Part shown: piece after piece, positions 2,257 to 58,018 of the stretch
Layout of the letters: each line of letters begins with the position of its first letter
Position numbering within the stretch: position 1 is the stretch's first letter
NCBI GenBank assembly: GCA_964418255.1
Contig: CAYQKV010000002.1
Location: 108,421-172,420, forward strand
Direction of reading: 5' to 3'
DNA from: an uncultured Christensenella sp.
GTDB lineage: Bacteria; Bacillota; Clostridia; Christensenellales; DTU072
DNA: 64,000 bases
The notes under the pieces: model-generated
Seen by the model: the letters and a program-made list of their open reading frames with translations, nothing else
Databases searched by the model: none
Told to the model about the DNA's origin: nothing
Program-made: the position numbers and the translations under genes

Positions 2257-2282
2257 ACGTTGGTTATAAGTGAGAGTTGTTA

Positions 2283-5975: not shown

Positions 5976-6147
5976 TTTTCGGAAAAAACACGGAGTGGAG
6001 AGATTGCGTTGATTTTTTTCGTAAGTGAACCGTCGCTGTACCGACGTACAGAAATATCACCCCCAAAAGCATATATCTTTTCGGGGACCCCGACTAAACT
6101 TACGGAAAAGTGGAAAAAACTCAGATTTTGTCCGCTTTTTACTGCTT

Positions 6148-6346
6148 AAATACTCAAAAAGTAAAAATCGCACTTTTTACTTTTTGCCCTTATGGGGTTC
6201 GAGCAAGGGGAAACCCCTTGCGAACTTACATAACAAGCGGAACGGTACGCTCCGCTTCCTTGTAAGTCCGACTTGCGTGGATAAAGATTTTATCGGCACA
6301 AAGATTAGCGACTTGCCGTAAAATCCCGCGCAACGTCTGGTCGGAA
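6148..6346 (+). repeat. Structured repeat element, subfamily 1, copy 1 (orientation A on + strand)
   Basis: Homologous to 17326-17531(-), 48275-48475(+) and 57230-57428(+). Hairpins: caaaaagtaaaaa/tttttactttttg, gcaagggg/ccccttgc, aagcggaacg/cgctccgctt. Long 3' helix: tccgac..ttgcgtgg..gattttatcggca / tgccgtaaaatc..ccgcgcaa..gtcgga. Confidence 0.85.
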
Positions 6347-6614
6347 AATTTCCGGGCGTAAAGCAACGCGATATATACACTCGTAAAAAGCATATTGACA
6401 AGTAATATTTTATCGCTTACCATAAAATAAATAGGGGTTTAATAATTGATTTCGCACAAAACGGAATCGAAGAAGACGGCTTATTGACAATTTTTGAGAG
6501 GAAAAAATTTTTTTTTACAAATTTCGTGGACAAAACGGCTTGTCGGATTGTTATAGTTTATAGGTGAAAAAAACCGACACTATAAACGCTATAAGAGGAG
6601 GCGTCGGAGCGGAG

Positions 6615-16410: not shown

Positions 16411-16680
16411 TTAAATTCTGTGCATCGCCTGGAAAATCGCTTCGCTTTGAATACGTATGTCTACGCCGATGGAAGAGCCTACCTCTTTGAGTTTGCTGTC
16501 TATGCCGTCGAAGGCAAGGTTCGCTTCGCCGAGGTCGACGAGCATAATCATAGTGAAATAGTCCTGCATAATCGTCTGGGATATGTCCTCGACGTTTACG
16601 TTCATTTCCCATAAAGCGGTCGTCACCTTTGCGATTATACCGCGCTTGTCCGTGCCGATAACTGATACAATTGCTTTCAT
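16411..16680 (-). CDS. ACT-domain protein (UPF0237 family)
   Basis: MKAIVSVIGTDKRGIIAKVT... is an ACT fold signature. The ATG at 16680 is preferred over the track start at 16740. Confidence 0.8.
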   Translation of the reverse strand: MKAIVSVIGTDKRGIIAKVTTALWEMNVNVEDISQTIMQDYFTMIMLVDLGEANLAFDGIDSKLKEVGSSIGVDIRIQSEAIFQAMHRI

Positions 16681-16793
16681 TTTTTCTCCGTTACACCGTT
16701 TTTTTTCTGCTATTATACCAAATTTCCCACAATAAGACAACCGTTTACAAAATAAAACAAAATATTACACGCACCCGAGTCCATAATCAGTTT

Positions 16794-17318
16794 ATGAAAC
16801 CGAGAAAGAAACTAAAAAAAGATAACGGGACGAAAACAGACGAAGCGATGCTGATAAAACAGCAGGCTGAAAGAATAGAAGAATTAAGAGAGGAAAACCG
16901 CGCGCTCGAACTGTCTCTGGAAAGTTACAGAAACAGGGAAAAGGAAATCGTCGCTACGCTCGAATTCGCTAAAAAGAAAGGCGAAGAGTACGTCGCTATG
17001 GTAAGGGTAAAATACGCCCTCGAATGCGACCGTCTCGCAAGGTTCAGAACGAAACTCAAAGCATATAGGACGAAAGAAGAATTGATAAAGGGTTATGACG
17101 ACGCTTACGGACAGCTCAAAGAATGGCAGAACGAACTCGAACAGGCTATCGCGAAAGACTTCGGCAACCCGATGAAAGACTACCTCGGCGAAAGAAAAAG
17201 ATTAAACGACGAACCCGCCCTTAATTACGGCGCGATTATCGGAGAGGGAACGACCGACCTCGAAAACGCAACGCAGATAAGCGAAGAGGAACTTAAAGAA
17301 TTACTTGAACAGATATAA
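16794..17318 (+). CDS. Coiled-coil protein, DivIVA-domain-like
   Basis: Charged heptad-rich sequence (EELREENRALELSLESYRNREKEIVATLEFAKKKGEEY). The ATG at 16794 is preferred over the track start at 16671, which overlaps the ACT gene promoter region. Confidence 0.5.
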   Translation: MKPRKKLKKDNGTKTDEAMLIKQQAERIEELREENRALELSLESYRNREKEIVATLEFAKKKGEEYVAMVRVKYALECDRLARFRTKLKAYRTKEELIKGYDDAYGQLKEWQNELEQAIAKDFGNPMKDYLGERKRLNDEPALNYGAIIGEGTTDLENATQISEEELKELLEQI

Positions 17319-17325
17319 ACGCAAG

Positions 17326-17531
17326 GCTTCCGACCAGTCGTTGCGCGGAGATTTTCCGTCAGTCGCTAACGCTTTGTGCCGATAAAATTTTGTATCCGCG
17401 CAAGTCGGACTTCCGCGGAAGCAAAATGACACATTTTGCTTAATAGTTTAGTTCGCAAGGGGTTTACGCCCCTTGCTCGAACCCCATAAGGGCAAAAAGC
17501 GAAAAGTGCGATTTTCACTTTTTGGGTATTT
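17326..17531 (-). repeat. Structured repeat element, subfamily 1, copy 2 (orientation A on - strand)
   Basis: Reverse complement aligns end to end with 6148-6346. Helices ttgcgcgga/tccgcgcaa, ggaagcaaaatg/cattttgctt, gcaagggg/ccccttgc and caaaaagtgaaaa/ttttcgctttttg. Confidence 0.85.
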
Positions 17532-17672
17532 TGACGTAAAACTTATCGGGTCACCCCGCCCGCCCACCCGATAGAGTGGGTGTTTTTTATCTGTTATCCT
17601 TATCCGCTTTATTTCACTTTATTTACAGAGATACTTAATTAGGGAGAAAACTATAATAAACAATACGAAAGA

Positions 17673-17825
17673 TTTTTGTAAGGGAAGAGCGCGAGAGGGG
17701 AGAAACTTTTTGCTAAAAAAGGTTTCCTCTCTCGCAATTTTAACATACCAACTTACGAAAAGTTTTTGTAAAGAGGGAGCACGAGGGAGAAGAAACTTTT
17801 TGTCAAAAAAGGTTTTCGCCCTCGT
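17673..17825. repeat. Two 'empty' inverted-repeat hairpin units (the same arms that flank subfamily-2 cores, but without a core)
   Basis: Unit 1 (17673-17735): gcgagaggggagaaac-tttttgctaaaaaag-gtttcctctctcgc. Unit 2 (17763-17825): acgagggagaagaaac-tttttgtcaaaaaag-gttttcgccctcgt. About 85-90 bp spacing, continuing into the full element at 17846. Confidence 0.7.
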
Positions 17826-17845
17826 AAACTCTCTAATAAAATTTT

Positions 17846-18115
17846 TGTTTTTGTAAGGGAAGAGCGCGAGAGGGGAGAAACTTATATATTCGACACGAAC
17901 GTGCGCGTACCGAGAGTGTCGCCTTTATGGGGGTAAGCAAGGGGAGTGAACCCCTTGCGAGCTTACATAACAAGCAAAATGTGTCATTTTGCTTCCTTGG
18001 TAGTCCGACTTATGCGGATTAAGAAATCGTCCGCGTGTCGAATTCATCTCGACCGCGAGCGATTTTCCGCATAACGTTTGGTCGGGTGTAGTCTAAAAAG
18101 TTTTCCTCTCTCGCA
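17846..18115 (+). repeat. Structured repeat element, subfamily 2, single core inside inverted-repeat arms
   Basis: Left arm gcgcgagaggggagaaactt (17864-17883). Core begins cgacacgaacg..gtgtcg. Right arm aaagttttcctctctcgc (18098-18115). Core is homologous to the 203-bp units at 56477-57150. Confidence 0.85.
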
Positions 18116-18120
18116 CGCTA

Positions 18121-19188
18121 CTATTGCACAAAAGAAAAAGCGAAATCGCCGTCGCTGTCGATGGTAAGAATGATGGTGCCGTTAAGGTCGGTGCGGTAGA
18201 CCGAGGCGTCTGCCGCTTCGAGACGGGCGAGGGCGTCGGGAGTGGGGTGACCGTATTTGTTATCCTGTTCGTCAACGCAGATAATCGCGTACTCGGCTTG
18301 CACGTAAGCGAGAAATTCGGTCGTGGACGAATGTTGGCTGCCGTGGTGAGCGACTTTGAGAAAATCGACGTCCATATCGTAACTTTCGCTGTACAGAATA
18401 AACCATTCCTCTTCTTCGCTCGGCGCGTCGCCCGTAAGAAGGAGTTTTCTCCCGCCGTAGGTAAGCAAGGTAATAATCGACATACCGTTTTTGATTTTGC
18501 TTTCGGTCTTTGTAAAGCCGTCGTTGCCGGGAGAAAAGAAAGTGAGAACGCAGTCGCCGACCGTTAAATCAAACGTAGAACTTTCGGGCGTATCGATAAT
18601 ATGTAACGTCGCGCCGTCCTCGGCTTTCGCCTTGTCCGTGAACTTTCGATAGGTAGCGGAACCGTCCTCATAATAATCGTTAAAATAAAAGTTTTTTATA
18701 ACGTAGTCGTCCACGACCTGACTCATCATATTGACGTGGTCGCTGTCCGGATGTGTGACGACAAGATAGTCGATAACGTCTCCCTCCACGACGTCGGATA
18801 AGTATGAATAATACCGCGTCTTCGTCGCGGACGAAGCGGAAAGTCCGCTGCCCGCGTCCACAAGCATATATTTGTTTTCGGGAAGTTCGATTACTATCCC
18901 GTCGCCCTGACCGACGAACACGAAATGAATTTTTATCGGCACGCCGTCTATTTCGCCGACGGAATCGCCCCGCACCGTAGCGGAAGTCCCGCCGCTTGCG
19001 CCGCCATTATTGCCGTTTCCGTCGTCTAAGTTGTCGTCCTGCGTTTCGCCGAGGATAGCGTCGATTACGCTATCGAGTTTTCCTGTTTTATATAAAACTA
19101 TCGTTAAGGCTACCAAAACGAGGATAAGGAGCACCGCAATTATGATTATTGCTGTCTGATTACTTTTTCGAGATTTTCTTTTTGCCAT
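18121..19188 (-). CDS. Membrane-anchored MBL-fold hydrolase, ComEC/Rec2 C-terminal-domain-like
   Basis: N-terminal TM anchor, HxHxDH-type motif (VVTHPDSDHVNMM), and VAHHGSQHS. Confidence 0.7.
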   Translation of the reverse strand: MAKRKSRKSNQTAIIIIAVLLILVLVALTIVLYKTGKLDSVIDAILGETQDDNLDDGNGNNGGASGGTSATVRGDSVGEIDGVPIKIHFVFVGQGDGIVIELPENKYMLVDAGSGLSASSATKTRYYSYLSDVVEGDVIDYLVVTHPDSDHVNMMSQVVDDYVIKNFYFNDYYEDGSATYRKFTDKAKAEDGATLHIIDTPESSTFDLTVGDCVLTFFSPGNDGFTKTESKIKNGMSIITLLTYGGRKLLLTGDAPSEEEEWFILYSESYDMDVDFLKVAHHGSQHSSTTEFLAYVQAEYAIICVDEQDNKYGHPTPDALARLEAADASVYRTDLNGTIILTIDSDGDFAFSFVQ

Positions 19189-19455: not shown

Positions 19456-19633
19456 CGTTTTGTATTTTTATTTATGCGCGCACGCAGAGCGCGTACGCAT
19501 AAAGAAAAGACGGAGTGCGCATATAGCGTTTTGCCGATTGTCCGGAAAGTCCGCTTCGTTTATGCGGCGGCGAAATTACTTACTTTTCCGAAAGACAAAC
19601 GCAATCTGTTCACACCGTGTAAAGGCGCGAGGT

Positions 19634-22600
19634 ATGATGATGAAAACTAAAAGATGTACGGGTCTGAAAATTGCCGTTACGGCTATCGCGGCGGCGCTGC
19701 TTACGATGTTGCTTTCGGCGTGTTTCGGGACGCATACCGTAATTACGTTTCAGACGAACGGCGGTTCTCCCTGCGAGTCGATTACCGTAGACGGAGAAAC
19801 CGAAAGCATTACGTTGCCCACGCCGACGAGAGACGGTTACGACTTCGACGGGTGGTACGCCAACCGCGCGTTGACCGAGTCCGTTCCGAACGTTCTCACG
19901 GGAGAGAGTATTCCCACCGCAAGCGTTACTTTTTACGCGAAATGGCTCGTTAAACAGATTACCATAACTTTTGTGGCGGGAGACGACGTCGTCGAAAAAC
20001 GCGTGCTCGACTACGACTCGTACGTTTATGCGGAAGATTTTCCGTCTCTTGCCGACTATCCCGATTATCGTTGGAACAACGCTACGTTCAGGGCGCAGTA
20101 CGACCGTACGATAACCGCGGTGAAAGTGACGGTCGAAGACCCGGAATACACCGTGTCTTACTATGTCCCCGGTGAAGACGGTTTTTCCTTATACGCTTCC
20201 CGAAAAGGGACGGAAGGCACGGCTATCGTATCTCCCGAAAATCCCGTTTCTCCCGACGGCGACTCCGCTAAATATTTCGCGGGATGGTACTACGACGAAA
20301 ATTACGTCAATCTCTGCCGCGAGCTTCCGAGCAGTATAGGGGGAGAAAACCTTTCTTTCTACGCTAAGTTCGAAGAGGCGGGAGACGATTCGAGATACTT
20401 ATTCTATGAAGAAACCGCCGACGGAACGGGCGTGACTATTATCGGTTTTACCGTGGTCGGAGGATACCAGCCTACGGTGTCCATTCCTTCCGAGATAGGC
20501 GGCAAACCCGTAGTCGCGTTGGGTACGGGCGGAGAGCCCGCGGCAAAAGGCGCGCTCGGCTCGACGTTTTTGAAACGCGTGGTGGTTCCCGCGTCGGTGC
20601 GGGAGATAAGAGACTGGGCTTTCGCGGGGTGTACCGCGCTCGAAGAGGTTATTTTTACGGGCGACGCGGTTACTTCGATAGGTAAAGGAGCGTTCGCGGG
20701 GTGCGTTTCTCTTGCGGCGTTTAACCTACCCGATAACGTGACGAGCGTGGGCGATTACGCGTTCGCGGGGATAGGAACGGGCGGAACGGAAGACGTCGAA
20801 ATCGACGGGCTTACGGGAAAATGGACGAAAACGGAAATGAAACTTGCGCGTTTCAACTCGGGTTCGGCGAGCAAACTTTCCGCGCTCGGCGCGTATGCGT
20901 TTTATAACTGCCCGCAACTTGTCGGCGTCAAACTCGGCGCGGTTATGAGAGAATTCAACTACCTTGCGTTTATGGGAAGCGGCATTGCCGAAGTGGAATT
21001 TTACGAAGGGGGCAACCTTACGGGCATAGACGGCGCGGTGTATTCGCGTTCGGGAGCGACCCTTTACTATTATCCGCTTAACGGTAAAGTTGAATATACG
21101 ATGCCGCAAAGCGTAACGGCTGTCGCGCCTTACGCGTTCTACGCAAACGGCAATATAAAAACAGTCACGGTTTCGCCGCGGCTTGTTTCGATAGGAGAAA
21201 AAGCCTTCGCCGAGTGCTCTGCGCTCGAAAGCGCGTATTTAAGAGATTCCGTCCTTTCTTCTGTGGGAGAAAGCGCGTTCGAAAACTGCGTGTCTCTCGG
21301 AAGAATAGTTTTCCCTGCGACGCTCGTAACTCTTTCTTCTTCCGCGTTCGCTTCCTGCTCTGCGCTCGAAAGCGTTACGTTCGAAGGAAGCGCGCTTTCC
21401 GCGATAGGGGACAGGGCGTTTGAAAATTGCGTTTCGCTCGGTTCGATTACCGTACCGACGGACGTGACGAGCATAGGAAATTATGCGTTCGGAAATTGTA
21501 CTTCTCTCGCGTATCTGCGGTTCGGGACGAGGAGTAAACTGACGTTCGTCGGCGATTACGCGTTTTACGAATGCAGAAGCATCGGCTCGGTGTTGTTGCC
21601 GTCGGGAATAACTTCGATAGGAAGGTACGCGTTCGCTTCGGAAAGCGGCAGAATGGAATTCGAATTCGACGGAGATACCGATTTAAGCAACCTCGAATAC
21701 ATAGGCGATTGCGCGTTTATGAACACGCGAATAGCTTCGGTTACCATATCGGGGAAAATCGCGTCGAACGACGCGCTCGGGAAATACGTTTTCAAAAACT
21801 GCACTATGCTTAGACAGGCGTTCTTCTCGCCCGCCGCGTATACCGCTGTGCCCGAAGGACTGTTTTACGGTTGTACTTCTCTTACGAGAATAAGATTTTC
21901 GGGAAATATCCGCTCGGTGGGAGCGTACGCGTTTTATAACTGCGCGGCTATGGAATGGGCGGAATTCGGTTCGGGCGTTACGGAAATTTACGAAAGCGCG
22001 TTCGAAAACTGCGTTTCCCTTACCAACCCGGGAGCGGACCAAAGAGTTCTGCCACGCAACCTTACCTATCTCGGGTCGAGGGCGTTTTATAACTGTTCTT
22101 CCCTCGAAACCGTCAATATACCCGCAAATCTTGCGAAAATAGAGAAAGAAACTTTCGCGCGGTGCTCTTCGCTTACCGATATAAACTACGACGACGGTGC
22201 GGTTCTCGCCACGATAGGGGAAAACGCGTTTGCGTACTGTTCGAGCCTGCAAAGGGCGGCTTTGCCCGTTTCCCTTGCGGAGAGGAACGAAGACAACGCG
22301 AGCGGATTTGTGGGAAATCCTTTCTACGGGTGCGCGAATTTGAGAGAATACGTCTTCGCGGGAACGCCAGAAGGAACGTTGTTCGCCGAGGACGGAGTTG
22401 TCTATCGCAAGCTGGAAAAGGCGAGCGTTGAGGGCGAATACGCCGCGGAAAGGGCGATTTACGCGTATCCTACCGCAAAATCCACGGCGACGTTCAATGT
22501 TTCGACAAACGTCGCGGTTATCGACGCGTACGCGTTTTACGGATGCGTAATAAGAGGGCTCGGGTTTGCGAGAAATACCGAAGTCGGCGGAACGGAAAGC

Positions 22601-25600
22601 GTGGTTTTGGTGTCGATAGGGGACTACGCGTTCGCCGACACGCAGATAACGACGGCGAATATTTCCTTCCGCGTGTACGAAATAGGAGAAGGCGCGTTCA
22701 GAAACAGCCAACTGAGCAGCGTGACCGTGGACGGAACTTATATTTACGACGGAATAAGCGATTATTCGATAATAAATACCGATACCGACAGAGCGAACAA
22801 TCTGATTTCCATAGGAGCGTACGCGTTTGCCGAGACTTCGATAGCGACGTTTACCGCGCCGTCGAGAACGGCTTTGCTCGGAGAGGGTGCGCTCAGTTCG
22901 GATTACAAACTTTCGTCGGTGACGCTTACGGGAGGGAATTTAACCGAACTTACGCTCGGCGCGCGGCTTTTCGAAAAGGACAACCTCATTACCGAAATCA
23001 CCCTGCCGTCCTCGGTAGTCGAAGTGGGAGCGTACGCGTTTTATCGCTGTTCCAACCTCGGTTCGGTGCGCTTTGTTTCGGGCGGTTCGTTCGGACTGAC
23101 CATCGGAGACTACGCGTTTTCCGAAGCGCATTATCTGTATGAAATAACTTTGCCGTCCACCGTGGTTTCCCTCGGAACGGGCGTGTTCGACGGCGATACC
23201 AGACTTAAATACGTATACTTCCCGGAGACTCTTACCGTTGCGACCGACCTTGCCGTACCCGACAGAGCTTTTGAAGGTATGCCCGCGCTTAACGAGCTGG
23301 AAATTCCCGAGTATATCTCGAAAATAGGGGAAAAAGCGTTCGCGTCATCCGCGCTTAGAAGCATAACCTTCCTCGGAACGGAAGATTCGGTCGGACTGGA
23401 AATAGCAAGCGAAGCGTTCGCAAAACTCGACGGACTTACCGAAATAACCCTTCCCGCGAATTTAACCGCAATAGGAGAAAGAGCGTTCGCGTATTCTGCG
23501 TTGAAAGAAGTAGTTTACGGAGAGGGCAAAACCTTTACGATAGGCGACGGAGCGTTTGAAGGAACCGCGCTTACCCAATTTACGGCGACGGAAAGAGTGT
23601 CGAAAATCGGGAAGAGAAGTTTTGCAAACGTCGCTACCCTTACCTCTTTTACATCCGCGGATACGGTGACGGAAATACCCGATATGGCGTTCTACGGAGA
23701 CGCGCGCCTTTCGAATTTATCCCTCGGAAACGCGGTGACGAGCCTTGGAAGAGAATGTTTTTACGGAACGGGAATTACCGAATTCCTTTCCGAATCGGTG
23801 ACGGAAATAGGCGTCTCCGCGTTCGGGAATTCGGCGGTTAAGAAAGTATCGTTTGTTTCTTCTTCGAAAATCACGGTGGAAGAAAGAGCGTTCGAAAACG
23901 CGAGAGCGCTTGCGGAAGCGAGCTTCGAAGCGGCGGGAGAAATAGTTATCGGCGAAAACGCGTTCGAAAACAACGCGGCGCTTATCGCGCTTACTGTAAA
24001 AGGCGCGACGGCGGTACTTGCGGACGGGTTCGCTTCGGGAGCGACCTCGCTCGGAGAAGGGTTCTCGTTCGAAGAAACCGACTCTGCGTACGCTAATTAC
24101 AAGTTCGACGAAGAGGAAAAAGTACTGTACTCGGCGGATGGAAAGAAATTCGTATATTATCCCGCGGGCAAGACGGGTTCGGTGTTTACCCTTGCAAGCG
24201 AAGTGGAAGAAATCGGTCCTTACGCGTTCTATGCGAACGCGGGGATTACCGCGCTTATTATAGAAGGGGAAAACGTCGTAAGGAGCGATACCAGTTTCGG
24301 ATATACGAGCGCGGACCTTACTTTCTACGTCGCTTCCGACCTGGTGGAACAGTATATAAACAGATGGCAGACGAGCGCGTTTGCGGCGCGGTCGACCGTG
24401 CTCGGCGGGTTCGTTCTCGCGTTGCAGAGTTCGGGAGATTACAGCGTAACCGAATACCTCGGAGCGGACGACTACGTGGAAATAACCGGCGAAATGACGG
24501 ACGAAGAGGGTAAAACTTACGTCGTTTCTTCCGTCGGAGAAAACGCGTTCAGAAACAATACCGTCATACGGACTCTCGTAATAGACGGAGGGATAAAGAC
24601 GATAGCGAGCGGAGCGTTCCGCAACTGTTACAAACTCGCCTCGGTTACGATAGGAGAAAACGTGACGAGCGTGAAGAGTTACGCGTTTTATAACTGCGCC
24701 GCGCTGGAAAGCGTGGAGTTTGCGGGAGAAAGCAGTCTGATAAGCATAGGAAATTACGCGTTTGCGCGGGACGGTGAGCTCAAAGAATTCTCCGTACCAG
24801 ACGGGGTGGAGAGCATAGGAATATTCGCGTTTTCGGGAGATTACAGTCTTAAAGAAATCACGATAGGAAACGGGCTTGCGGAAATAGGCAACAACGCGTT
24901 CGAAAACTGTTCGTCAATCGTATCCGTCGCTATGCCCGCGTCGCTGTCGAAAATGGGAAGTTACGTTTTCAGCGGTTGCGATAACCTCGTATACCTCGAT
25001 ATAGGCAATCCGTCGGTGTGCTCGATAGAAAGCAACACGTTTAACGGAACGCCCGAAAGTTTGTATTTCTTCGTTCCCGATTCTGCGGCGGCAAGACTTT
25101 ACAAAGCGGACGGGGTGTGGAGAACGCATATCAGCAAAATTCTGTCCGCGGAAGAGCGTTGCGCGGAAGAAGGGTTTGAAAACTACGTCCTTAGAAACGA
25201 CGGGACGGGGTATACGCTTATAGCGTATCTCGGCACGGAAACCGACGTGGAAATCGTATCCGATATTTCCGACGACGTGAAAATCGAAGAAATAGGCGAG
25301 TATGCGATAGGACAGTTTGCGAAAAACGTGACGGTTGATGACGGCGTAAAAGTAATAGGAGAACGCGCGTTCTATCAGGCGAAAAACCTCGCTACGCTCG
25401 TTCTTCCGTCAAGCTTGGAAGAAATCGGTTCTTACGCGTTTCAATATCTCGAAAAATTGACTTCGGTAACCGTAAACGACGGGTCCGTCCTCGCTTCGAT
25501 AGGACCTTACGCGTTTTACGGATGTACGGGACTTACCGAAATCGTGTTGCCCGCTTCTTTAAGAACCGTGGGGGACTACGCGTTTTCGTGCGCGGACGGA

Positions 25601-27775
25601 GAAAGTATGAACTTGAAAACGGCGCTTTTCTTACACGACGCCGTAGGCGGAACGGACGGGACGGGAGCGAGCGTATATATTTCGATAGGAAGAAAGGCGT
25701 TCGCAAACAACGCCGAGCTTAAAACGCTTACGTTCAACTGCCGCGTGTCGGCAATCGGAGACGGCGCGTTCGACGGGTGCGAAAGTCTCGACAGTCTGTA
25801 CCTTAATTACAATCCGACGAGAAACACTTCCGATATGGTGGCTTCGGTAAGCGGAAACGGAGTGTTCGGCGGGTGCGAAAAACTTTCGGTGTTCCTGCCC
25901 ACGACGGCGATAACGGGACAGTACAGGACGGTATGGACGTCGGACTACGACAAACATAAACTTACCGCGGTTACTTACCGCGACACTCTCGGCTTCGTGT
26001 ACGCGGTTACTTCCACGTCGAACAGACAGGTTACCGTTATTAACTATCTCGGCGATGATACCGAAGTTAACTTCCCGACGGAGACGCAAATCGGACAGGA
26101 AGTGTACAGAGTGGTGCGTATAGGCAGAGAGAAATACGGGACTGCGGAAGAGGTAAACGGACGGATTATAGGAAACAACGTTACGAAAGTAACGATACCC
26201 TCCACGGTCGTCACGATAGGAGAGGACGCGTTCAGGGACAGCGAAAATCTTAAAGAAGTCACGATGGGGACGAGCGTAAACACGATAGAAGGATATGCGT
26301 TTGCCGGGTGCAAAAAACTTACCGACATAACCATACCTCTTTCGGTGACGACGATAGAAGCGTACGCGTTTTACGACTGCGACAGTCTTAACACGGGACT
26401 GCGTTTTGCGGAGTCTGTCGCCCCGCCCGCCACCCCCACCCTTATTATCGGAGGATACGCGTTTGCCGAGTGCGACGAACTTGCTTCTTTCTACGTGCCC
26501 AACCACGTCAGAACGATAGGCGGCGTAAGAACGACGGGAAGCGTAAACGTCGGGCATACGTTCGAAAACTGCGTAAACCTTACTAAAATAACTTTCTCGT
26601 CCGACGCGCTCATTACGGCAATCGAAGGATATAACTTCGTGAATACGGCGATTGAAGAAATCGTCCTTCCCCGTTCGCTGGAAACGGTGGCGGATTACGC
26701 GTTTGCAAACTGCTCGAAACTTCTGAGAGTGGTAGTGGAAAGGGAAATCGGCGCGGGCGTTTCCACACCGACGACTGCGGGGAACAACGTGTTCGACGGC
26801 ATAGACAACCCTCAATTAAAAGTTTACGTTCCGTCGGCGTCTTACGACGTGTACGCGGCAAGCCGCGGTTGGAACGTAAAAACGGTAATAGAAAACAACG
26901 TTACGCCCGACGGACTGTTCGCTTATAAACTCGACGGAACGGGCGACGGCGCGTACATAACCCTTACCGACTATCGCGGAACGGAGGAAATCTGCGTCGT
27001 GCCGAGGTTGGTGACGTTGCAAAGCCGTGATTATTACGTTACCACGATAGGCAGATATTTTGCCGCTTCGTACGTGAAAAAAGTCGAGTTCGAAAACGTT
27101 TCGTCGGTTACGGCTTTGGCGGAGTACGCGTTCGCGTCGTGCTATATGCTCGAAGAAATACATCTGCCCGACGGAATAACGACGATAGGAGCGCACGCGT
27201 TCGAAGGGTGCGTAAAACTTACCGATATAACGCTTTCCGCTTCTCTGTCGGAAATCAAAGAATTTACGTTCTATAATTGCAATTCGCTTAAAGAAATCGT
27301 TCTGCCCGAGGAAATTCTCAGCATCGGACCGTCGGCGTTTTACCGCTGTTCCAACCTTTCGAGAGTGGTCGTTAAGTTCGGGAAAAACCTCAACGAAAGC
27401 AACGTGGGCGCGTCGATAGGAAACTCCGCGTTCGGTGACGCGGGCACGGGCGCGGGCGGACTGGCTATTATAGTCCCCGACGACAAATACGCGGTATTCC
27501 GCGCGGGCTGGATTGCGGACAGAGACCGTATTTATTCGGCAAGCAACGTCGTGGGCGACTACGTGGTCAGAATAAACGATATGGGAACCGCGCTTACCCT
27601 CGTGCAGTACGTCGGCAACGCCGAGACGCTTGACCTTACGGAAATTTCTATGATGGGACTGTACGTCGATACAATCGCGGAAAACGCCATAGCGAGCGAA
27701 CTTACTACGATAATCGTGGGTAAAAACGTAGTTTTCCCGTCGGATATTGCGGACAGGATACAGATAAAGGAATAA
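19634..27775 (+). CDS. Giant surface lipoprotein (2713 aa) with a Listeria-Bacteroides-type repeat and many BspA-type leucine-rich repeats
   Basis: Start moved to ATG 19634 (MMMKTKR...LLSAC lipobox). The N-terminal segment FQTNGGS....P.RDGYDFDGWY is followed by dozens of repeats of the form IGxYAFxxCxSLxSVxIPxSVTSIGxxAF. Confidence 0.9.
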   Translation: MMMKTKRCTGLKIAVTAIAAALLTMLLSACFGTHTVITFQTNGGSPCESITVDGETESITLPTPTRDGYDFDGWYANRALTESVPNVLTGESIPTASVTFYAKWLVKQITITFVAGDDVVEKRVLDYDSYVYAEDFPSLADYPDYRWNNATFRAQYDRTITAVKVTVEDPEYTVSYYVPGEDGFSLYASRKGTEGTAIVSPENPVSPDGDSAKYFAGWYYDENYVNLCRELPSSIGGENLSFYAKFEEAGDDSRYLFYEETADGTGVTIIGFTVVGGYQPTVSIPSEIGGKPVVALGTGGEPAAKGALGSTFLKRVVVPASVREIRDWAFAGCTALEEVIFTGDAVTSIGKGAFAGCVSLAAFNLPDNVTSVGDYAFAGIGTGGTEDVEIDGLTGKWTKTEMKLARFNSGSASKLSALGAYAFYNCPQLVGVKLGAVMREFNYLAFMGSGIAEVEFYEGGNLTGIDGAVYSRSGATLYYYPLNGKVEYTMPQSVTAVAPYAFYANGNIKTVTVSPRLVSIGEKAFAECSALESAYLRDSVLSSVGESAFENCVSLGRIVFPATLVTLSSSAFASCSALESVTFEGSALSAIGDRAFENCVSLGSITVPTDVTSIGNYAFGNCTSLAYLRFGTRSKLTFVGDYAFYECRSIGSVLLPSGITSIGRYAFASESGRMEFEFDGDTDLSNLEYIGDCAFMNTRIASVTISGKIASNDALGKYVFKNCTMLRQAFFSPAAYTAVPEGLFYGCTSLTRIRFSGNIRSVGAYAFYNCAAMEWAEFGSGVTEIYESAFENCVSLTNPGADQRVLPRNLTYLGSRAFYNCSSLETVNIPANLAKIEKETFARCSSLTDINYDDGAVLATIGENAFAYCSSLQRAALPVSLAERNEDNASGFVGNPFYGCANLREYVFAGTPEGTLFAEDGVVYRKLEKASVEGEYAAERAIYAYPTAKSTATFNVSTNVAVIDAYAFYGCVIRGLGFARNTEVGGTESVVLVSIGDYAFADTQITTANISFRVYEIGEGAFRNSQLSSVTVDGTYIYDGISDYSIINTDTDRANNLISIGAYAFAETSIATFTAPSRTALLGEGALSSDYKLSSVTLTGGNLTELTLGARLFEKDNLITEITLPSSVVEVGAYAFYRCSNLGSVRFVSGGSFGLTIGDYAFSEAHYLYEITLPSTVVSLGTGVFDGDTRLKYVYFPETLTVATDLAVPDRAFEGMPALNELEIPEYISKIGEKAFASSALRSITFLGTEDSVGLEIASEAFAKLDGLTEITLPANLTAIGERAFAYSALKEVVYGEGKTFTIGDGAFEGTALTQFTATERVSKIGKRSFANVATLTSFTSADTVTEIPDMAFYGDARLSNLSLGNAVTSLGRECFYGTGITEFLSESVTEIGVSAFGNSAVKKVSFVSSSKITVEERAFENARALAEASFEAAGEIVIGENAFENNAALIALTVKGATAVLADGFASGATSLGEGFSFEETDSAYANYKFDEEEKVLYSADGKKFVYYPAGKTGSVFTLASEVEEIGPYAFYANAGITALIIEGENVVRSDTSFGYTSADLTFYVASDLVEQYINRWQTSAFAARSTVLGGFVLALQSSGDYSVTEYLGADDYVEITGEMTDEEGKTYVVSSVGENAFRNNTVIRTLVIDGGIKTIASGAFRNCYKLASVTIGENVTSVKSYAFYNCAALESVEFAGESSLISIGNYAFARDGELKEFSVPDGVESIGIFAFSGDYSLKEITIGNGLAEIGNNAFENCSSIVSVAMPASLSKMGSYVFSGCDNLVYLDIGNPSVCSIESNTFNGTPESLYFFVPDSAAARLYKADGVWRTHISKILSAEERCAEEGFENYVLRNDGTGYTLIAYLGTETDVEIVSDISDDVKIEEIGEYAIGQFAKNVTVDDGVKVIGERAFYQAKNLATLVLPSSLEEIGSYAFQYLEKLTSVTVNDGSVLASIGPYAFYGCTGLTEIVLPASLRTVGDYAFSCADGESMNLKTALFLHDAVGGTDGTGASVYISIGRKAFANNAELKTLTFNCRVSAIGDGAFDGCESLDSLYLNYNPTRNTSDMVASVSGNGVFGGCEKLSVFLPTTAITGQYRTVWTSDYDKHKLTAVTYRDTLGFVYAVTSTSNRQVTVINYLGDDTEVNFPTETQIGQEVYRVVRIGREKYGTAEEVNGRIIGNNVTKVTIPSTVVTIGEDAFRDSENLKEVTMGTSVNTIEGYAFAGCKKLTDITIPLSVTTIEAYAFYDCDSLNTGLRFAESVAPPATPTLIIGGYAFAECDELASFYVPNHVRTIGGVRTTGSVNVGHTFENCVNLTKITFSSDALITAIEGYNFVNTAIEEIVLPRSLETVADYAFANCSKLLRVVVEREIGAGVSTPTTAGNNVFDGIDNPQLKVYVPSASYDVYAASRGWNVKTVIENNVTPDGLFAYKLDGTGDGAYITLTDYRGTEEICVVPRLVTLQSRDYYVTTIGRYFAASYVKKVEFENVSSVTALAEYAFASCYMLEEIHLPDGITTIGAHAFEGCVKLTDITLSASLSEIKEFTFYNCNSLKEIVLPEEILSIGPSAFYRCSNLSRVVVKFGKNLNESNVGASIGNSAFGDAGTGAGGLAIIVPDDKYAVFRAGWIADRDRIYSASNVVGDYVVRINDMGTALTLVQYVGNAETLDLTEISMMGLYVDTIAENAIASELTTIIVGKNVVFPSDIADRIQIKE

Positions 27776-48274: not shown

Positions 48275-48475
48275 CATATTCAAAAAGCGAAAACTACGTT
48301 TTTCGTTTTTTGCCCTTATGGAAATAATTAAGGGGAGTGAACCCCTTGCGGACTTAAATGAAAAGGAAGTCGGTACGAATTCATTCATTATGAGTCCGAC
48401 TTGCGCGGATATAAGGTTTTATCGGCACAAAGCGTAGCGACTGGCGGAAAATCTCCGCGCAACGACTGGTCGGAT
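48275..48475 (+). repeat. Structured repeat element, subfamily 1, copy 4 (partly degenerate)
   Basis: H1 is caaaaagcgaaaa/ttttcgttttttg. H2 is aagggg/cccctt. H4 is ttgcgcgga/tccgcgcaa and tccgac/gtcgga. H3 and the inner part of H4 carry mismatches. Confidence 0.8.
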
Positions 48476-48498
48476 AAAACAGATAATAAAGCCAATGC

Positions 48499-48556: not shown

Positions 48557-48997
48557 ATGAAAGTCATATTATTGCAAGACGTTAAACCCTTAGGCAAAAA
48601 AGGCGACATAGCCGAAGTGAACGACGGATACGCGAAGAATTTTCTCATACCTAAGAAAATGGCGACGGCGGCGACCAAAGACGCGCAGAACGAACGCAAT
48701 CAGCGTATAGCCAACGAAGAGAAGAGAAAAGCGGAAGAAAAAGCCGAGGCGTTGGCGTTATACGCGAAAATTAACGGAGCGACGGTAAAAGTGCCCGTCA
48801 AATGCTTCGAAGGAAAGATGTACGGAAGCGTAACCGCGGCGGACGTTGCGAACGGGCTGGCGCAGATGGGTTTTACCGTAGACAAGAAGAAAATAACCGT
48901 GCCTTCCTCGATAAAGAACGTGGGAGAATACGACGCCGAAGTATGGTGCTATAAAGAAACGGTGGCGAAAATCCGTATCGCGGTCGTAGCGGAGTAG
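48557..48997 (+). CDS. rplI: 50S ribosomal protein L9
   Basis: [30 protein letters not shown] is the canonical L9 N-terminus. Confidence 0.95.
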
Positions 48998-52179: not shown

Positions 52180-53304
52180 TTAAAGTCCGAAAAGTTCTCC
52201 GAGCGCGCTCTCGTTAAGTTTGCTTCCGATAACGCATATTTTACCGATTACGTCCGCGCTTCCGCTTCTTACGTCCGCGCCGTCGGGGATATAGTCGAAG
52301 TGTAACCACTCGTTTTCCCCGCGTACGATACCTTTCGCGCGGAGAACCGCTCCGAATTTTTCTTCGTCTCCCAAAGCGGAGAGAATCGCTTCAAGCCGCT
52401 CTTTCGTATAGGTCGCCGTCGTTTCTTTCCCCCACGAAACGAAAACTTCGTCCGCGTCGTGTCCGTGATGATGGTGATGACAGCAGTGTTCGTGTTCATC
52501 TTCCTCGTCGTGGTGATGACAGCAATGTTCGTGCTCGTCGTCCTCGTCGTGGTGATGGTGGCAGTGTTCGTGCTCATCTTCCTCGTCGTGGTGATGGTGG
52601 CAGTGTTCGTGCTCATCTTCCTCGTCGTGGTGATGACAGCAGTGCTCGTCTTCTTCGTCGTGATGATGGCAATGTTCGTGTTCGGAGAGGAGTTCGTCTG
52701 CCATTTTTTTTGCGGAAGAACGGCTTTCCATTGCGGCAAGGACGGTTTTTCCGTCGAGTTCGCTCAAAGGAGAGGCGATAACGGACGCGTTGGGGTTATG
52801 CTCTTTTACGAACGCGAGACATTCCGCGGTTTTCGTTTCGGTCGCGTCGTCGGTGTGGCTAAGCACCACGCAGTCGGCGTTTTCAAGTTGGTCGAGGAAG
52901 AATTCGCCGAAGTTTTTCGCGTACATAAGGCATTTTTTGACGTTCACGACGGTAGTTTTCGTGTTAATAGGCGCGTTGTCGAGACCTCTTTCCACGGCTT
53001 TTTCCACGTCGCTCAGTTTGCCTACTCCCGACGGTTCGATTATTATACGGTCGGGCGAATAGTCCTCGGTTACTTTTTTGAGGGCTTTTGCGAAATCGCC
53101 GACAAGGCTGCAACAAATGCAACCGCTGTTCATTTCCGTGATTTCCACGCCCGCGTCGCGTAAGAAACCGCCGTCTACGCCGATTTCTCCGAATTCGTTT
53201 TCTATAAGGACGACTTTTTCGCCTTTATAGGCTTCTTTTATCAGTTTTTTGATTAAAGTGGTCTTTCCCGCTCCGAGAAAGCCCGAAAAAATATCTATTT
53301 TCAT
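52180..53304 (-). CDS. COG0523/CobW-family metallochaperone GTPase with a long His/Cys/acidic repeat insert
   Basis: Walker A GFLGAGKTT, the CxCC motif GCICCS, a CobW C-domain, and about 75 aa of (HEHC[C/H]HHHDEEDE)n. The ATG at 53304 is preferred over the track start at 53367. Confidence 0.85.
   Translation of the reverse strand: MKIDIFSGFLGAGKTTLIKKLIKEAYKGEKVVLIENEFGEIGVDGGFLRDAGVEITEMNSGCICCSLVGDFAKALKKVTEDYSPDRIIIEPSGVGKLSDVEKAVERGLDNAPINTKTTVVNVKKCLMYAKNFGEFFLDQLENADCVVLSHTDDATETKTAECLAFVKEHNPNASVIASPLSELDGKTVLAAMESRSSAKKMADELLSEHEHCHHHDEEDEHCCHHHDEEDEHEHCHHHHDEEDEHEHCHHHHDEDDEHEHCCHHHDEEDEHEHCCHHHHHGHDADEVFVSWGKETTATYTKERLEAILSALGDEEKFGAVLRAKGIVRGENEWLHFDYIPDGADVRSGSADVIGKICVIGSKLNESALGELFGL
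52455..52690 (-). repeat. In-frame tandem DNA repeats (about 33-39 bp) encoding the His-rich tract
   Basis: 52561-52599 and 52600-52635 are identical for 36 nt. Flanking units are diverged copies. Confidence 0.8.
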
Positions 53305-53375
53305 TTTCCGTAAACCTCCGTTAAAGAAAATTTTTTGAGTTTTGTATTTTTTTGCCGCTTTGCGCAAAACTATCG

Positions 53376-55315: not shown

Positions 55316-56467
55316 ATGAAATTGAGTAAAGTATTTGATTTGATTAAAAAAGAAGAAGAACGCCAGAGCCGAAACATAGAACTTATCGCGAGCGAAAATT
55401 TTTGCAGCGAAGACATTATGAAAGCGGTGGGCAGTTGCCTTACGAATAAATACAGCGAAGGGTATCCGGGTAAAAGATATTACGGCGGGTGCGAAGTCGT
55501 AGACGAGATAGAGACATATTGTATAGAGATGTGGCAAAAAGTGTTCAATACCGATTACCACGTCAACGTCCAGCCCCACAGCGGTTCGAGCGCGAACCTT
55601 GCTTCTTACCAGGCGATTCTTGTTCCCGGAGACAAGGTTCTCAGTATGGAACTTAACAACGGCAGTCATCTTACCCACGGTTCGGCGGTAAACGCGAGCG
55701 GAAAACTCTATAACTTTTCTTTTTACGGAGTGGACGAAAGAGGTTATATCGATTACGAAGACGCGAGAAAGAAAGCTCTCGAAATCCGTCCGAAACTCAT
55801 AGTGGCGGGCGCGAGCGCGTATTCGAGAATAATCGATTTCGCCAAATTTTCCGAGATAGCGAAAGAAGCCGGCGCGCTTCTTATGGTAGACATCGCGCAT
55901 ATAGCCGGACTTGTCGCTACGGGTTATCATCCTACGCCGTTCGGGTATGCCGATATAGTAACTACGACTACGCATAAGACGCTGAGAGGACCGAGAGGCG
56001 GTTTGATTTTCTGTAAGGAAGAACTTGCCAAAAAAATCGACTCGGCAATCTTCCCGGGAACGCAGGGCGGACCTTTGCAACACGTTATCGCAGGCAAAGC
56101 AATCGCCGCGGAAGAAGCGTTGACACCCGAGTACAAGGAGTATATAGGAAAGGTAGTCGAAAGCTGTCGCGTTATGGCGGAGGAGTTCGTAAAAATGGGC
56201 TATAAGGTCGTCACGGGCGGCACCGACAACCATCTTTTCCTTGTGGACTTGACGGACAAAGGAGTAAGCGGAAAACAGGTGCAGGAGGCTTGCGACGCAG
56301 TCGGTATAACCCTCAACAAAAATTGCGTGCCCAACGAAACCCGTTCTCCTATGCAGACGAGCGGCGTGAGAATAGGCACCGCGGCAATGACAACAAAAGG
56401 CTTTACCGCAAAAGATTTTGTCGAAACCGCTCATAAAATCGATAAAGTTATTAAAAATATTTTATAA
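55316..56467 (+). CDS. glyA: Serine hydroxymethyltransferase
   Basis: [32 protein letters not shown] and [14 protein letters not shown] (PLP lysine). At 383 aa it is shorter than the roughly 415 aa of well-known GlyA proteins. Confidence 0.95.
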
Positions 56468-56476
56468 ATTTAGATT

Positions 56477-57150
56477 GCGAGAGAGGAAAACTTTTTAGAC
56501 TACACCCGACCAAACGTTATGCGGAAAATCGCTCGCGGTCGGCATTTAGCCGACGCGCGGACGATTTTTTTAATCCGCATAAGTCGGACTACCAAGGAAG
56601 CAAAATGACACATTTTGCTTATTATGTAAGTTCGCAAGGGGTTTACTCCCCTTGCTTATCCCCATAAGGGCGACACTCTCGGTACACGCCCGTTCGTGTC
56701 GATTATCTCCGACCACACGTTATGCGGAAAATCGCTCGCGGTCGGCATTCAGCCGACGCGCGGACGATTTTTTTAATCCGCATAAGTCGGACTACCAAGG
56801 AAGCAAAATGACACATTTTGCTTATTATGTAAGTTCGCAAGGGGTTTACTCCCCTTGCTTATCCCCATAAGGGCGACACTCTCGGTACACGCCCGTTCGT
56901 GTCGATTATCTCCGACCACACGTTATGCGGAAAATCGCTCGCGGTCGGCATTTAGTCGACGCGCGGACGATTTTTTTTATCCGCATAAGTCGGACTTCCA
57001 AGGAAGCAAAATGACACATTTTGCTTGTTATTTAAGTTCGTAAGGGGTTCACTCCCCTTACTTATCCCCATAAGGGCGACACTCTCGGTACACGCCCGTT
57101 CGTGTCGAATATATAAGTTTCTTCTCCCTCGCGCTCCCTCTTTACAAAAA
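56477..57150 (-). repeat. Structured repeat element, subfamily 2: three tandem 203-bp cores inside a single pair of inverted-repeat arms
   Basis: Unit phase markers gacca[a/c]acgttatgcgg lie at 56508, 56711 and 56914 (period 203). Arms are gcgagagaggaaaacttt (56477-94) and aagtttcttctccctcgcgc (57115-34). Units are nearly identical. Confidence 0.9.
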
Positions 57151-57229
57151 CTTTCCTTATTTATGTATTTAATCTTTCCCTTACATTAAGTGTAAACTTA
57201 AATGGATGGAAAAGAAAAAGGAATAAAAT

Positions 57230-57428
57230 AAATTCAAAAAGTGGAAAGCACATTTTTCACTTTTTGCCCTTACAGGGGTCGAGCAGGGGAATATCCCCTG
57301 CGAACTGTGGATATAAGGAAGTCGGTACGACTTTCTTCCTTATAAGTCCGCCTTACACGGAAATAAATTTTATCCGCACAAAGGTTTTACCGATTGCGGT
57401 AAAATTCCGTGTAACGTTTGGTCGGAAG
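57230..57428 (+). repeat. Structured repeat element, subfamily 1, copy 8
   Basis: H1 is caaaaagtggaaa/ttttcactttttg. H2 is gcagggg/cccctgc. H3 is aaggaagtcg/cgactttcttcctt. H4 is ttacacgga/tccgtgtaa and aattttatccgca/tgcggtaaaatt. Confidence 0.85.
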
Positions 57429-57544
57429 CCTGCCGCCGTTTGGTTGGAAGCTTGCCTTGACTATTTTAGTTATAATGTAGTATACTTTATTTAAGGTAGA
57501 TGTTTACCTAAAATATATTTTGTCATATTAGGAGGATAGTTATT

Positions 57545-58018
57545 ATGACTGTATTAAGCGGTTTGGCGGCGATGCAACCGTGGCTTATGTGGCTTATAAT
57601 CATACTTGCGGCGGTAATCGTTTTCGGCGTTATTATGCACTTTATCAACCGTTCGTTCCGCATCAAGTACGATTTGAACCTTTTCGGCGGCGGCTTGCTT
57701 ATGGCTATCGCGCTTGCAAGCGCGGTCGGCGGCTTTTTCTTGGTTAAAGGAGAATCTAAAATCGGATACGCGCTGTTTGCGCTTACGGCGATACTTATTA
57801 TCGTGACGCTTATTTACGACGTAAAAAAATGCGGAGGAATGGGCGTCGTAGCTCTTATATGTCAAATTCTCTTCTCGGTAGGTTCGATTTTATTGATATT
57901 CGATTTCTTCGGGAATAAATCCCGTTCGTCGGTCTCGCACTCGATTCGCGAGGACAGAATCGTTAGAAGAGAACGTGAAAGAAGAGGATATAACGACCGC
58001 GACCGCGGATATTATTGA
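57545..58018 (+). CDS. Small membrane protein with an Arg/Asp-rich C-terminal tail
   Basis: 4 TM segments, then RERERRGYNDRDRGYY. Good RBS (taggagga). Confidence 0.6.
   Translation: MTVLSGLAAMQPWLMWLIIILAAVIVFGVIMHFINRSFRIKYDLNLFGGGLLMAIALASAVGGFFLVKGESKIGYALFALTAILIIVTLIYDVKKCGGMGVVALICQILFSVGSILLIFDFFGNKSRSSVSHSIREDRIVRRERERRGYNDRDRGYY

Follow-up and report, generated by a model that had tools for sequence, protein, structure and literature searches.

Head-to-head pairs of a structured intergenic repeat in an uncultured Christensenella, read as a nested mosaic of two gene-end repeat families

Pneumococcal BOX elements (boxA-boxB(n)-boxC), like RUP and SPRITE, are modular non-coding intergenic repeats with stable folds that are co-transcribed with their neighbours. 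IS1397 and ISKpn1, autonomous transposase-encoding insertion sequences (IS) of the IS3 family, insert into the loops of repetitive extragenic palindromes (REPs), and the palindrome-associated transposable elements (PATEs) of IS200/IS605 and the omega RNAs of TnpB and IscB have asymmetric ends, subterminal hairpins, orientation-specific insertion and a structure of 150-250 nt. REP palindromes of Enterobacteria and Pseudomonas are assembled into bacterial interspersed mosaic elements (BIMEs), high-copy extragenic palindromes located after genes and arranged in mosaic clusters with fixed orientations (PMC2817692); REPs have also been described as elements of the 3' untranslated region (UTR), co-transcribed with the upstream gene and thought to affect termination or mRNA decay (bioRxiv 10.64898/2026.03.23.713779). 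Miniature transposable elements with inverted repeats (MITEs) such as Correia, ERIC and bcr1 provide a further class for comparison (reviewed in PMC10969869). Here we describe a 64,000-nt stretch of the genome of an uncultured Christensenella sp. (GCA_964418255.1, contig CAYQKV010000002.1, positions 108,421 to 172,420; hereafter the window), in which copies of a non-coding repeat, the core, occur at two loci as head-to-head pairs in company with a second, palindromic repeat, HP.

The window corresponds to C2:108421-172420 of a 1.78-Mb assembly of 21 contigs that is 97.7% complete; coordinates without a prefix are those of the window, and a C prefix denotes a contig of this assembly. On balance we consider it probable that in the head-to-head pairs two unrelated families of non-coding gene-end repeats, the core and HP, form a nested mosaic. 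HP with its trailer runs into a leader of ~60 nt and a sense core at 16 loci, and a core of the second type, either one copy or a tandem array, lies in the HP loop at 8 loci; the ends carrying the first hairpin (H1) face each other because the antisense copy sits in the HP loop and the sense copy behind the trailer. The two loci of the window illustrate this arrangement. The one downstream of glyA, 56477-57429, is composed as follows, scores being those of R1, a covariance model of the core portion past H1:

56477-56505, plus strand: distal HP arm (GCGAGAGAGGAAAACTTTTTAG and ACTACAC), which pairs with 57115-57135
56506-57114, minus strand: three head-to-tail type-2 cores in the HP loop, E1 (56506-56708), E2 (56709-56911) and E3 (56912-57114), at 170-172 bits
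56527-56571, plus strand: hairpin rich in G+C with T7 behind it, read in the sense of glyA; reverse complement of core helix H5
57115-57150, plus strand: proximal HP arm and its extension AAGTTTCTTCTCCCTCGCGCTCCCTCTTTACAAAAA; the arm is present 42 times genome-wide
57151-57229, plus strand: HP trailer and U1 leader, including TTAAGTGTAAACTTAA, which forms a small hairpin, and GGAATAAAATAAAT; related copies number 15, with identities of 74-99%
57230-57429, plus strand: core copy F with an AU-rich type-1 H1, at 160 bits; sense relative to HP and to the downstream gene
57433-57448, plus strand: mini-duplicate of the core's final 16 nt (CCGCCGTTTGGTTGGA) on the 3' side of copy F
57457-57486, plus strand: promoter-like TTGACT-N18-TATACT for the gene at 57545-58018; no other copy in the genome

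A first-pass annotation had seen head-to-head pairing here, inverted relative to the other locus, and this was borne out: three minus-strand type-2 copies face one plus-strand type-1 copy across a 115-nt spacer (57115-57229), their H1 ends turned towards each other. The tandem array consists of three 203-nt units, E2 and E3 being 99% and 95% identical to E1; the assembly is a metagenome-assembled genome (MAG) with several composites at contig ends, and the copy number of this array could be mis-assembled. H1 of the array copies is CGACACGAACGGGCGTGTACCGAGAGTGTCG, as in the copy at 17886, and that of copy F is CAAAAAGTGGAAAGCACATTTTTCACTTTTTG. The distal arm begins 9 nt past the glyA stop codon (56465-56467) and, with its junction, recurs at 18091-18116 and on C6, C15 and C16. 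The array is antisense to both glyA and HP; the hairpin with T7 recurs in E2 and E3, and the 133-nt stretch that contains it folds at -46.9 kcal/mol (z = -5.6). The extension of the proximal arm includes a -35-like TTTACA (57141-57146), mirrored by TGTAAA on the other side of empty HPs, with a -10-like TATTTA 19 nt further on (57166-57171), and RNA of the spacer is unstructured (z = -0.7 and -0.4). Duplicates of the core 3' end comparable to that behind copy F are found in a related genome (G020) and in the rabbit-gut and RGIG5500 MAGs.

The partner locus, 17326-18116, is the mirror image of this one, with type 1 on the minus strand (17326-17531) and type 2 on the plus strand (17886-18090), and its H1 ends likewise face each other:

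17326-17531, minus strand: core copy B with a type-1 H1; gene 16671-17318, which is convergent, has its stop codon 8 nt from the core 3' end
17532-17600, plus strand: module U2, with a G-run on the core strand and, on the plus strand (that of the left gene), a terminator-like hairpin (17561-17582) followed by T6
17664-17885, minus strand: two empty HP palindromes and the proximal arm of a third, loaded HP, the sense orientation being that of gene 18121-19188
17886-18116, plus strand: core copy C with a type-2 H1 (17886-18090) in the HP loop and the distal arm (18091-18116)

An empty HP from the 17664-17885 region folds at -18.8 kcal/mol (z = -2.9), and the distal arm stops 5 nt from the stop codon of gene 18121-19188. 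The whole intergenic region, 17319-18120, lies between convergent genes and is built wholly of repeats.

The subfamilies that had been distinguished are variants of one core of ~200 nt with six covarying helices. The eight window copies align across ~200 nt with a mean column identity of 69% and differ on both sides of the stems; the AU-rich type-1 H1 is carried by the units at 6148, 17326, 48275 and 57230, and type 2 by those at 17886 and 56506-57114. The architecture comprises H1, a short GCCC/GGGG hairpin, H2, H3 and then a AGUCCGAC...GGUCGG closing helix around H4 and H5. Each hairpin module (H1, H2, H3 and H4/H5) comes in three to five discrete variants that are shuffled among copies, and a division into two subfamilies is hence a simplification resting on H1 alone. 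RNAalifold applied to 21 diverse copies of this genome gave 44 pairs, 19 of them with compensatory changes. When 38 distinct copies from several species were aligned to R1, 95.5% of cells were paired and 31 of the 44 pairs had changed on both sides; none of 500 shuffles scored as high, and sliding the partners by 1-3 columns left only 36-49% paired. The alignment had been fitted to R1, which favours the pairing score, but the margin over the controls is large. The core has thus the property by which a structured RNA is generally recognised, base pairs kept by compensatory changes, with the qualification that the AGUCCGAC/GGUCGG closing helix, because it is invariant, is unproven by covariation. 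Partial copies always keep the 3' end, have recurrent starts at model positions of about 27, 90 and 118, and mostly stand in tandem behind a full copy.

A known RNA family was rejected as the identity of the core for lack of a match in Rfam 15: at gathering scores the window returned tRNA-Leu only, and at E <= 10 the segment 56400-57550 gave chance-level matches far below gathering scores. As to which strand folds, we lean mildly to the forward one, that is, H1 to GGTCGG. This is slightly the more stable (mean -79.2 vs -76.9 kcal/mol; better in 41 of 60 copies; Wilcoxon p = 2.6e-4), and G-U pairs outnumber A-C pairs by 85 to 33, or by 49 to 33 (p = 0.10) once a single invariant U-G pair is left out. 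In the HAN102 MAG (L061; cores at 6006-6179, minus strand, and 2268-2441, plus strand) a core ends 9 nt before the ribosome-binding site of a small co-oriented gene, and the forward strand is therefore transcribed at least there; this would be a position in a 5' UTR. The second HAN102 core faces obg, a convergent gene, and ends 1 nt from its stop codon.

HP is a palindromic repeat of ~80 nt with a stem of 14-20 bp and a trailer that begins TTTACAAAAAC. It is asymmetric, in that one side runs on as GCTC(C/T)C(T/C)CTTTACAAAAAC plus the trailer. The type-2 copies of the window are bracketed by the inverted arms GCGAGAGGGGAGAAACTT and AAGTTTTCCTCTCTCGC, and the same arms joined by a short loop form ~40 empty HPs in the genome, frequently in runs of two or three that repeat every ~85 nt. 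Empty HPs read GAAACTTTTTGCCTAAAAAGG, and filled ones share two junctions, GAGAAACTT to ATATATTCGACACG and GGTCGGG(T/C)GTAG(T/C) to CTAAAAAG, at C2:126303, C2:164925-165535, C6:39232, C15:30 and C16:741, with variants on C10 and C14. An empty GAAACTT-TTTGC-CTAAAAAGG thus stands against a filled GAAACTT-[ATATATTC...GGTCGGG(T/C)GTAG(T/C)]-CTAAAAAGG, and all eight nested loci use the same junction. Polarity is uniform, with H1 beside the trailer side and the core antisense to HP. The identical junctions would argue for a site-specific process or for common descent; HP arms come in flavours of which both were found loaded, and the nested cores carry four different H4/H5 variants (the 3' domain), from which more than one nesting event, or else frequent gene conversion, is argued.

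The pairing is not random across the genome. An nhmmer census of the whole assembly recovered 81 copies of at least 50 bits, 60 of them full length, and neighbours no more than 600 bp apart were tandem in 23 cases, head-to-head in nine and tail-to-tail in none (binomial p = 0.004 for the inverted pairs). Type-2 H1 occurs at nine loci, of which seven are between HP arms (C2:126303, C2:164925-165535, C6:39232, C10:2-403, C14:610, C15:30 and C16:741), each facing a type-1 copy at 111-351 bp or, on C10, a remnant consisting of the leader and the final 20 nt of a core; an eighth nested locus is split over contig ends of C8 and C14, and the un-nested type-2 copies are C6:16814 and C4:138024. No type-1 copy lies between intact arms (Fisher p = 7e-7, from a rough tally of loci), and one adjoins a degenerate arm (C7:60426). 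Upstream of type-1 cores stand U1, that is, one or more HPs with trailer and ~60-nt leader, in 16 cases, U2 in 11 and U3 in nine; 11 others have a different upstream context and one is in tandem behind another copy. Empty HPs are present at 11 of the 16 cores led by HP trailer and leader. Between paired cores there are 0 to 2 empty HPs and spacers of 111-351 nt, the spacer measuring 111-115 nt at four loci, and two spacers (C2:165555-165649 and C15:253-344) are 99% identical.

Both repeats have a preferred orientation towards genes. The gene upstream of HP is co-oriented in 24 of 36 copies in this assembly, and in a related genome that has HP and no core (G017) the HPs follow directly after stop codons in sense orientation, with a conserved trailer. 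Of the genes at the core 3' end, 42 of 66 are convergent, many with the stop codon 2-50 nt away, as are 25 of 33 in other species, 15 of these with the stop codon no more than 20 nt off. Cores thus tend to be antisense, and HPs sense, to the gene that they abut, and both tendencies are respected when a core occupies the loop of an HP at a gene end. Head-to-head pairs free of HP also exist: one in G025 stands between convergent genes, 11 nt from each stop codon, and another in G012 is suggested by coordinates. Co-oriented genes downstream of cores have their own canonical TTGACA-N17-TATAAT promoter past the core; a riboswitch-like leader of a regulon was rejected, the downstream genes being unrelated (L9, glutamine synthetase, copper ATPase, lipoproteins and others) and having canonical promoters of their own. 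G017 also holds a second hairpin repeat (loci L140 and L142) with an HP-like layout and other arms (CGGGGGCGACAACCTTTTTCGGCAAAAAGGTTATTCGCCCCCG and ACTTTCCAAAAACTTTT), which suggests a wider superfamily of gene-end palindromes sharing loop and trailer.

On the mosaic reading, cores would enter hairpins at gene ends, or stay there, in one set polarity, with GGTCGG pointing at the stop codon of the gene to which they are antisense, and HP loops would be one such target. Arrays might then grow through unequal recombination, hairpin modules be shuffled among copies through gene conversion, and the modules be co-transcribed as 3' UTR, supplying terminators. The glyA locus offers a candidate case. 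In four relatives (G024, G004, G009 and G020) glyA is 15-60 nt from the next gene, which encodes a small membrane protein, as against 1077 nt here; the whole repeat block of ~1.05 kb is missing from their glyA loci, and the gene after glyA is there without a promoter of the TTGACT-N18-TATACT type. The hairpin at 56527-56571, with U7 on the glyA strand, is a plausible intrinsic terminator, and may terminate glyA, the former operon partner having presumably gained a promoter of its own. In a comparison aimed at strain-level polymorphism of this locus, the only other contigs with the downstream protein ended 141 nt before it, at the repeat.

Several points weigh against this interpretation. For individual cores within HP loops no filled/empty polymorphism was seen, so that insertion into the loop is what we infer; the shared junctions would fit just as well with a single ancestral event and a later spread of the loaded HP. 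The search for a mobilising enzyme found none, the assembly having no match to PF07282 (TnpB), RVT_1 (PF00078) or Y1_Tnp (PF01797). Orientation is preferred at about 2:1, not absolutely, and only two of the five H4/H5 variants resemble reverse-strand terminators. The evidence on strand is weak and partly contradictory, the position of convergent stop codons suggesting that the strand opposite to the better-folding one is most often transcribed.

The alternative that survives best, although we think it unlikely, is one composite mobile unit, in which, after a single nesting event, the loaded HP spread together with trailer, leader and core as one block, through transposition or duplication, the differences among copies being due to later gene conversion. 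Nested copies do share identical junctions and H1 type, two spacers are 99% identical and four are 111-115 nt long, and it is the whole ~1.05-kb block that is absent from the glyA locus of the four relatives; against these stand the 0-2 empty HPs between cores, the loading of both arm flavours, the four nested 3' domains, a partner preceded by U2 at 17326 but by U1 at other loci, and the lack of a transposase and, around the block, of terminal repeats and target duplications. Of the composite unit proposed at first, fixed orientation and physical linkage by a conserved spacer stand. The left and right halves of a single element do not: the type-2 copy occupies the loop of a distinct palindrome that has its own taxonomic distribution, the HPs are empty at 11 of the 16 leader-type cores, type-2 H1 is met outside HP loops as well (C6:16814 and C4:138024), and relatives with 26 to >35 cores have no HP and mostly single or tandem copies among the matches listed. 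The HP arms were likewise rejected as the core's own terminal repeats, by the separate distributions of HP and core.

Nor are the solitary copies of the window half-sites, as had been supposed; 36 of 48 type-1 copies are without a U1 leader of the HP type, and these two carry other upstream modules:

6148-6348, plus strand: solitary core copy A with a type-1 H1, preceded by repeat U3 (5976-6147)
48275-48477, plus strand: solitary core copy D with a type-1 H1, upstream of the promoter of rplI (48557-48997)

U3 (GGAGTGGAGAGATTGCGTTGATTTTTT...TTTTACTGCTTAAATAC) is itself a repeat of ~150-170 nt, present in at least 40 other places of the assembly, mostly not beside cores (for instance C2:92291-92443, C16:15327-15479 and C7:82548-82698). 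U2, whose core strand bears a G-quadruplex-like run (GGGNGGGNGGGNGGG), also stands directly upstream of a core in G009 and separates the units of two tandem arrays (C2:6546-7243 and C3:64506-65191).

To nearly the same degree improbable, in our view, is a divergent transcription unit, in which a bidirectional promoter in the spacer directs transcription rightwards through the type-1 core and leftwards through one or more type-2 cores, both being expressed non-coding RNA genes, and in which the HP arms form a long stem around the type-2 RNA, for instance as an RNase III processing site. Behind the final HP in most arrays, a TA-rich hexamer (TATAGT, TATTAT, TATATT or TATTTA) comes 17-20 nt after TTTACA; CTTACA-N18-TATTAT was scored at 17682-17653, aimed at copy B, and a possible opposing TTGCAC/TTTACA with a -10 at N17-19 overlaps it by eye. 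A -10-like TAnAnT precedes H1 by 2-4 nt in every copy, distant species included, and the HAN102 core before a co-oriented gene and the slightly better folding of the forward strand are of the same tendency. However, TTTACA mirrors the TGTAAA of the other HP flank and so belongs to the palindrome, it also occurs between tandem HPs with nothing after them, and the same trailer is found in the core-free G017; the -35/-10 spacing is mostly 18-20 nt, and promoter scans give no more sites than shuffles. A forward transcript would be without a terminator and would run antisense into a convergent gene 2-40 nt away, and ~80 to 95 copies with a patchy occurrence (14 of 81 genomes) are unlike a housekeeping RNA gene.

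A slightly more doubtful proposal still is that the core is a structure-dependent mobile element or self-propagating RNA homing with fixed polarity to gene-end hairpins, whether terminators or HP. It would be moved by an unrecognised single-copy enzyme of the host or of an element, one reading the H1 loop and the AGTCCGAC/GGTCGG boxes, and the head-to-head composites would be snapshots of hairpin-loop targeting by a repeat that had reached ~80 to 95 copies. Apart from this proposal, the features seen in the copies (a constant 3' end, nested partial copies, 3' mini-duplicates conserved across species and no terminal repeats or target duplications) fit polar copying or recombination. The ends of the core, TA(n)A(n)TC-H1 and ACGNNTGGTCGGA, do not form inverted repeats, no target duplication was found in the flanks of 60 copies, and no conserved target motif was found beside the core 5' end; around HP, itself palindromic, there was no clear duplication.

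The domain searches that found no mobilising enzyme in the assembly gave control matches for TnpB and Y1_Tnp in 8 and 6 of 14 genomes, and PF01797 was present in only 3 of 28 genomes of the genus, without correlation with HP or core. PF04986 (Y2_Tnp), the marker of an IS91-type rolling-circle element, was likewise without a match in the assembly, though its control search was also without a match anywhere. Among open reading frames (ORFs) of at least 120 aa, a single pair was at least 70% identical (C2:178911-180104 and C3:130963-132156), and there is therefore no multicopy transposase. The genome is thus essentially without multicopy IS elements, yet has non-coding families of ~40 to 80 copies (core, HP and U3). 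Among candidates tried, a larger autonomous element bounded by core ends was rejected because the ORFs beside partial copies on C8, C7 and C4 are ordinary genes, and a TnpB/IscB guide RNA, an IS200/IS605 PATE and a retroelement because PF07282, PF01797 and PF00078, respectively, are unmatched.

Least probable is that cores inserted independently, each settling with its 3' end against a convergent stop codon so that two in one region come to face head-to-head: the polarity rule in this and other species, the HP-free pair of G025 and the position of 17326-18116, C6:38922-39432 and C3:64995-65490 between convergent genes speak for it, but it leaves unexplained the constant spacer, the strict link of type-2 H1 to HP arms (7 against 0) and the loci with a co-oriented downstream gene (the 57230 copy; C14:610; C7:60426/60812).

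The taxonomic distribution bears on the two-family mosaic. Searches with R1 recovered the core from 10 of the genus's 27 other species and, within the family, from 14 of 81 genomes and 5 of 17 genera, at 3 to >=35-47 counted matches per genome; 24 other families of the order, each represented by one genome, gave none. HP numbers ~40 copies in this assembly, 28 in the core-free G017, 6 in G021 and 1-2 in a few other genomes, and is lacking in the core-rich G009, G012, G013 and G025 (26 to >35 cores). HP and core are best regarded as separate repeat families because their distributions are independent. A pattern scan across 185,579 species genomes, with R1 applied afterwards, brought in homologues that are more distant and of high G+C content, in rabbit, sheep and other gut MAGs labelled Clostridia, Catabacter or Christensenella. 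These keep the whole architecture, the duplicated 3' tail and an H1 apical motif, ACGG(G/A)C.UG..CCGA; because the apical motif ACGGGCGUGUACCGA is kept in distant species, type-2 H1 is taken as ancestral and type 1 as derived. The pattern was absent from viral contigs, and a phage origin of the core was rejected on that ground. One core copy is orthologous by its flanks between this assembly (C20:5645-5846) and G024 (C81:4311-4474; L027), with the same upstream repeat, TTGACA promoter and downstream lipoprotein gene; the two cores are ~93% identical by eye, vs ~80% for glyA, which would suggest purifying selection or a recent exchange of the intergenic region. A literature search found no description of core or HP repeats in Christensenellales.

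The closest analogues of the pairs are BIME/REP mosaics and pneumococcal BOX, and they belong to neither, there being no REP-associated tyrosine transposase (RAYT) in the one case and no homology in the other. As in BIMEs, a high-copy gene-end palindrome is combined with other motifs in fixed relative orientations, and HP, at ~40 copies, is by itself a high-copy short palindrome after genes; but the core is not, being a 200-nt multi-helix structure with deep covariation, in contrast to the 35-nt BIME stem-loop, it lies inside the palindrome loop, where BIME units alternate side by side, and no cognate RAYT accompanies it, PF01797 being absent. With BOX the pairs share a variable number of internal units, stable structures, an intergenic position and a Firmicute host with few IS elements, but there is no sequence relation, and BOX modules form one element whereas HP and core are distributed separately. 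MITEs resemble these repeats in being small, non-coding, intergenic and patchy between species, with nested insertions and outward promoter-like or terminator-like sequences; the core differs in that it has neither terminal inverted repeats nor target-site duplication, always keeps its 3' end and has no related transposase, and so no parent IS, in the genome.

The core recalls PATEs and omega RNAs in its asymmetric ends, lack of inverted repeats and duplications, structured unit, constant 3' end and orientation-specific placement, but the genome has no TnpA (PF01797) and no TnpB (PF07282) or IscB, and the core matches neither HEARO nor any other Rfam model. Copies that retain the 3' end only do resemble the 5' truncation of retroelements; RVT_1 is absent, and no Rfam intron or retron matched. 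With IS1397 and ISKpn1 is shared the placement of one repeat specifically in the apical loop of another, palindromic one, but the nested unit is here non-coding, whereas they encode a transposase.

The window has two further repetitive features. At 52433-52674 there are five tandem copies of a 39-nt repeat, 64-88% identical and rich in GTGATG/CATCAC, inside overlapping long ORFs (52180-53367, minus strand), one strand of which would encode a His-rich repeat. An ORF of 2771 aa at 19460-27775, with dispersed internal repeats (families D5 and D9; GCGTTTTATAACTG motif), is probably a large repeat-domain surface protein.

The pairing is accounted for by nesting and orientation rules, and a new two-part element is not needed. 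The core is a well-supported structured family outside Rfam, found in at least five genera of gut Clostridia, and a non-coding unit lodged with strict polarity in another repeat's loop, in a genome with no obvious mobilising enzyme, makes a tractable case for the study of how repeats spread. Entire intergenic regions in this gut Christensenellales genome consist of three to five repeat modules, which is relevant for annotation; in regions such as 17319-18120 and 56468-57544, only 5-10 native bases are left per gene end. Repeat modules now probably supply the terminators, and in places the promoters, of housekeeping genes, and they have cut glyA off from its former operon partner.

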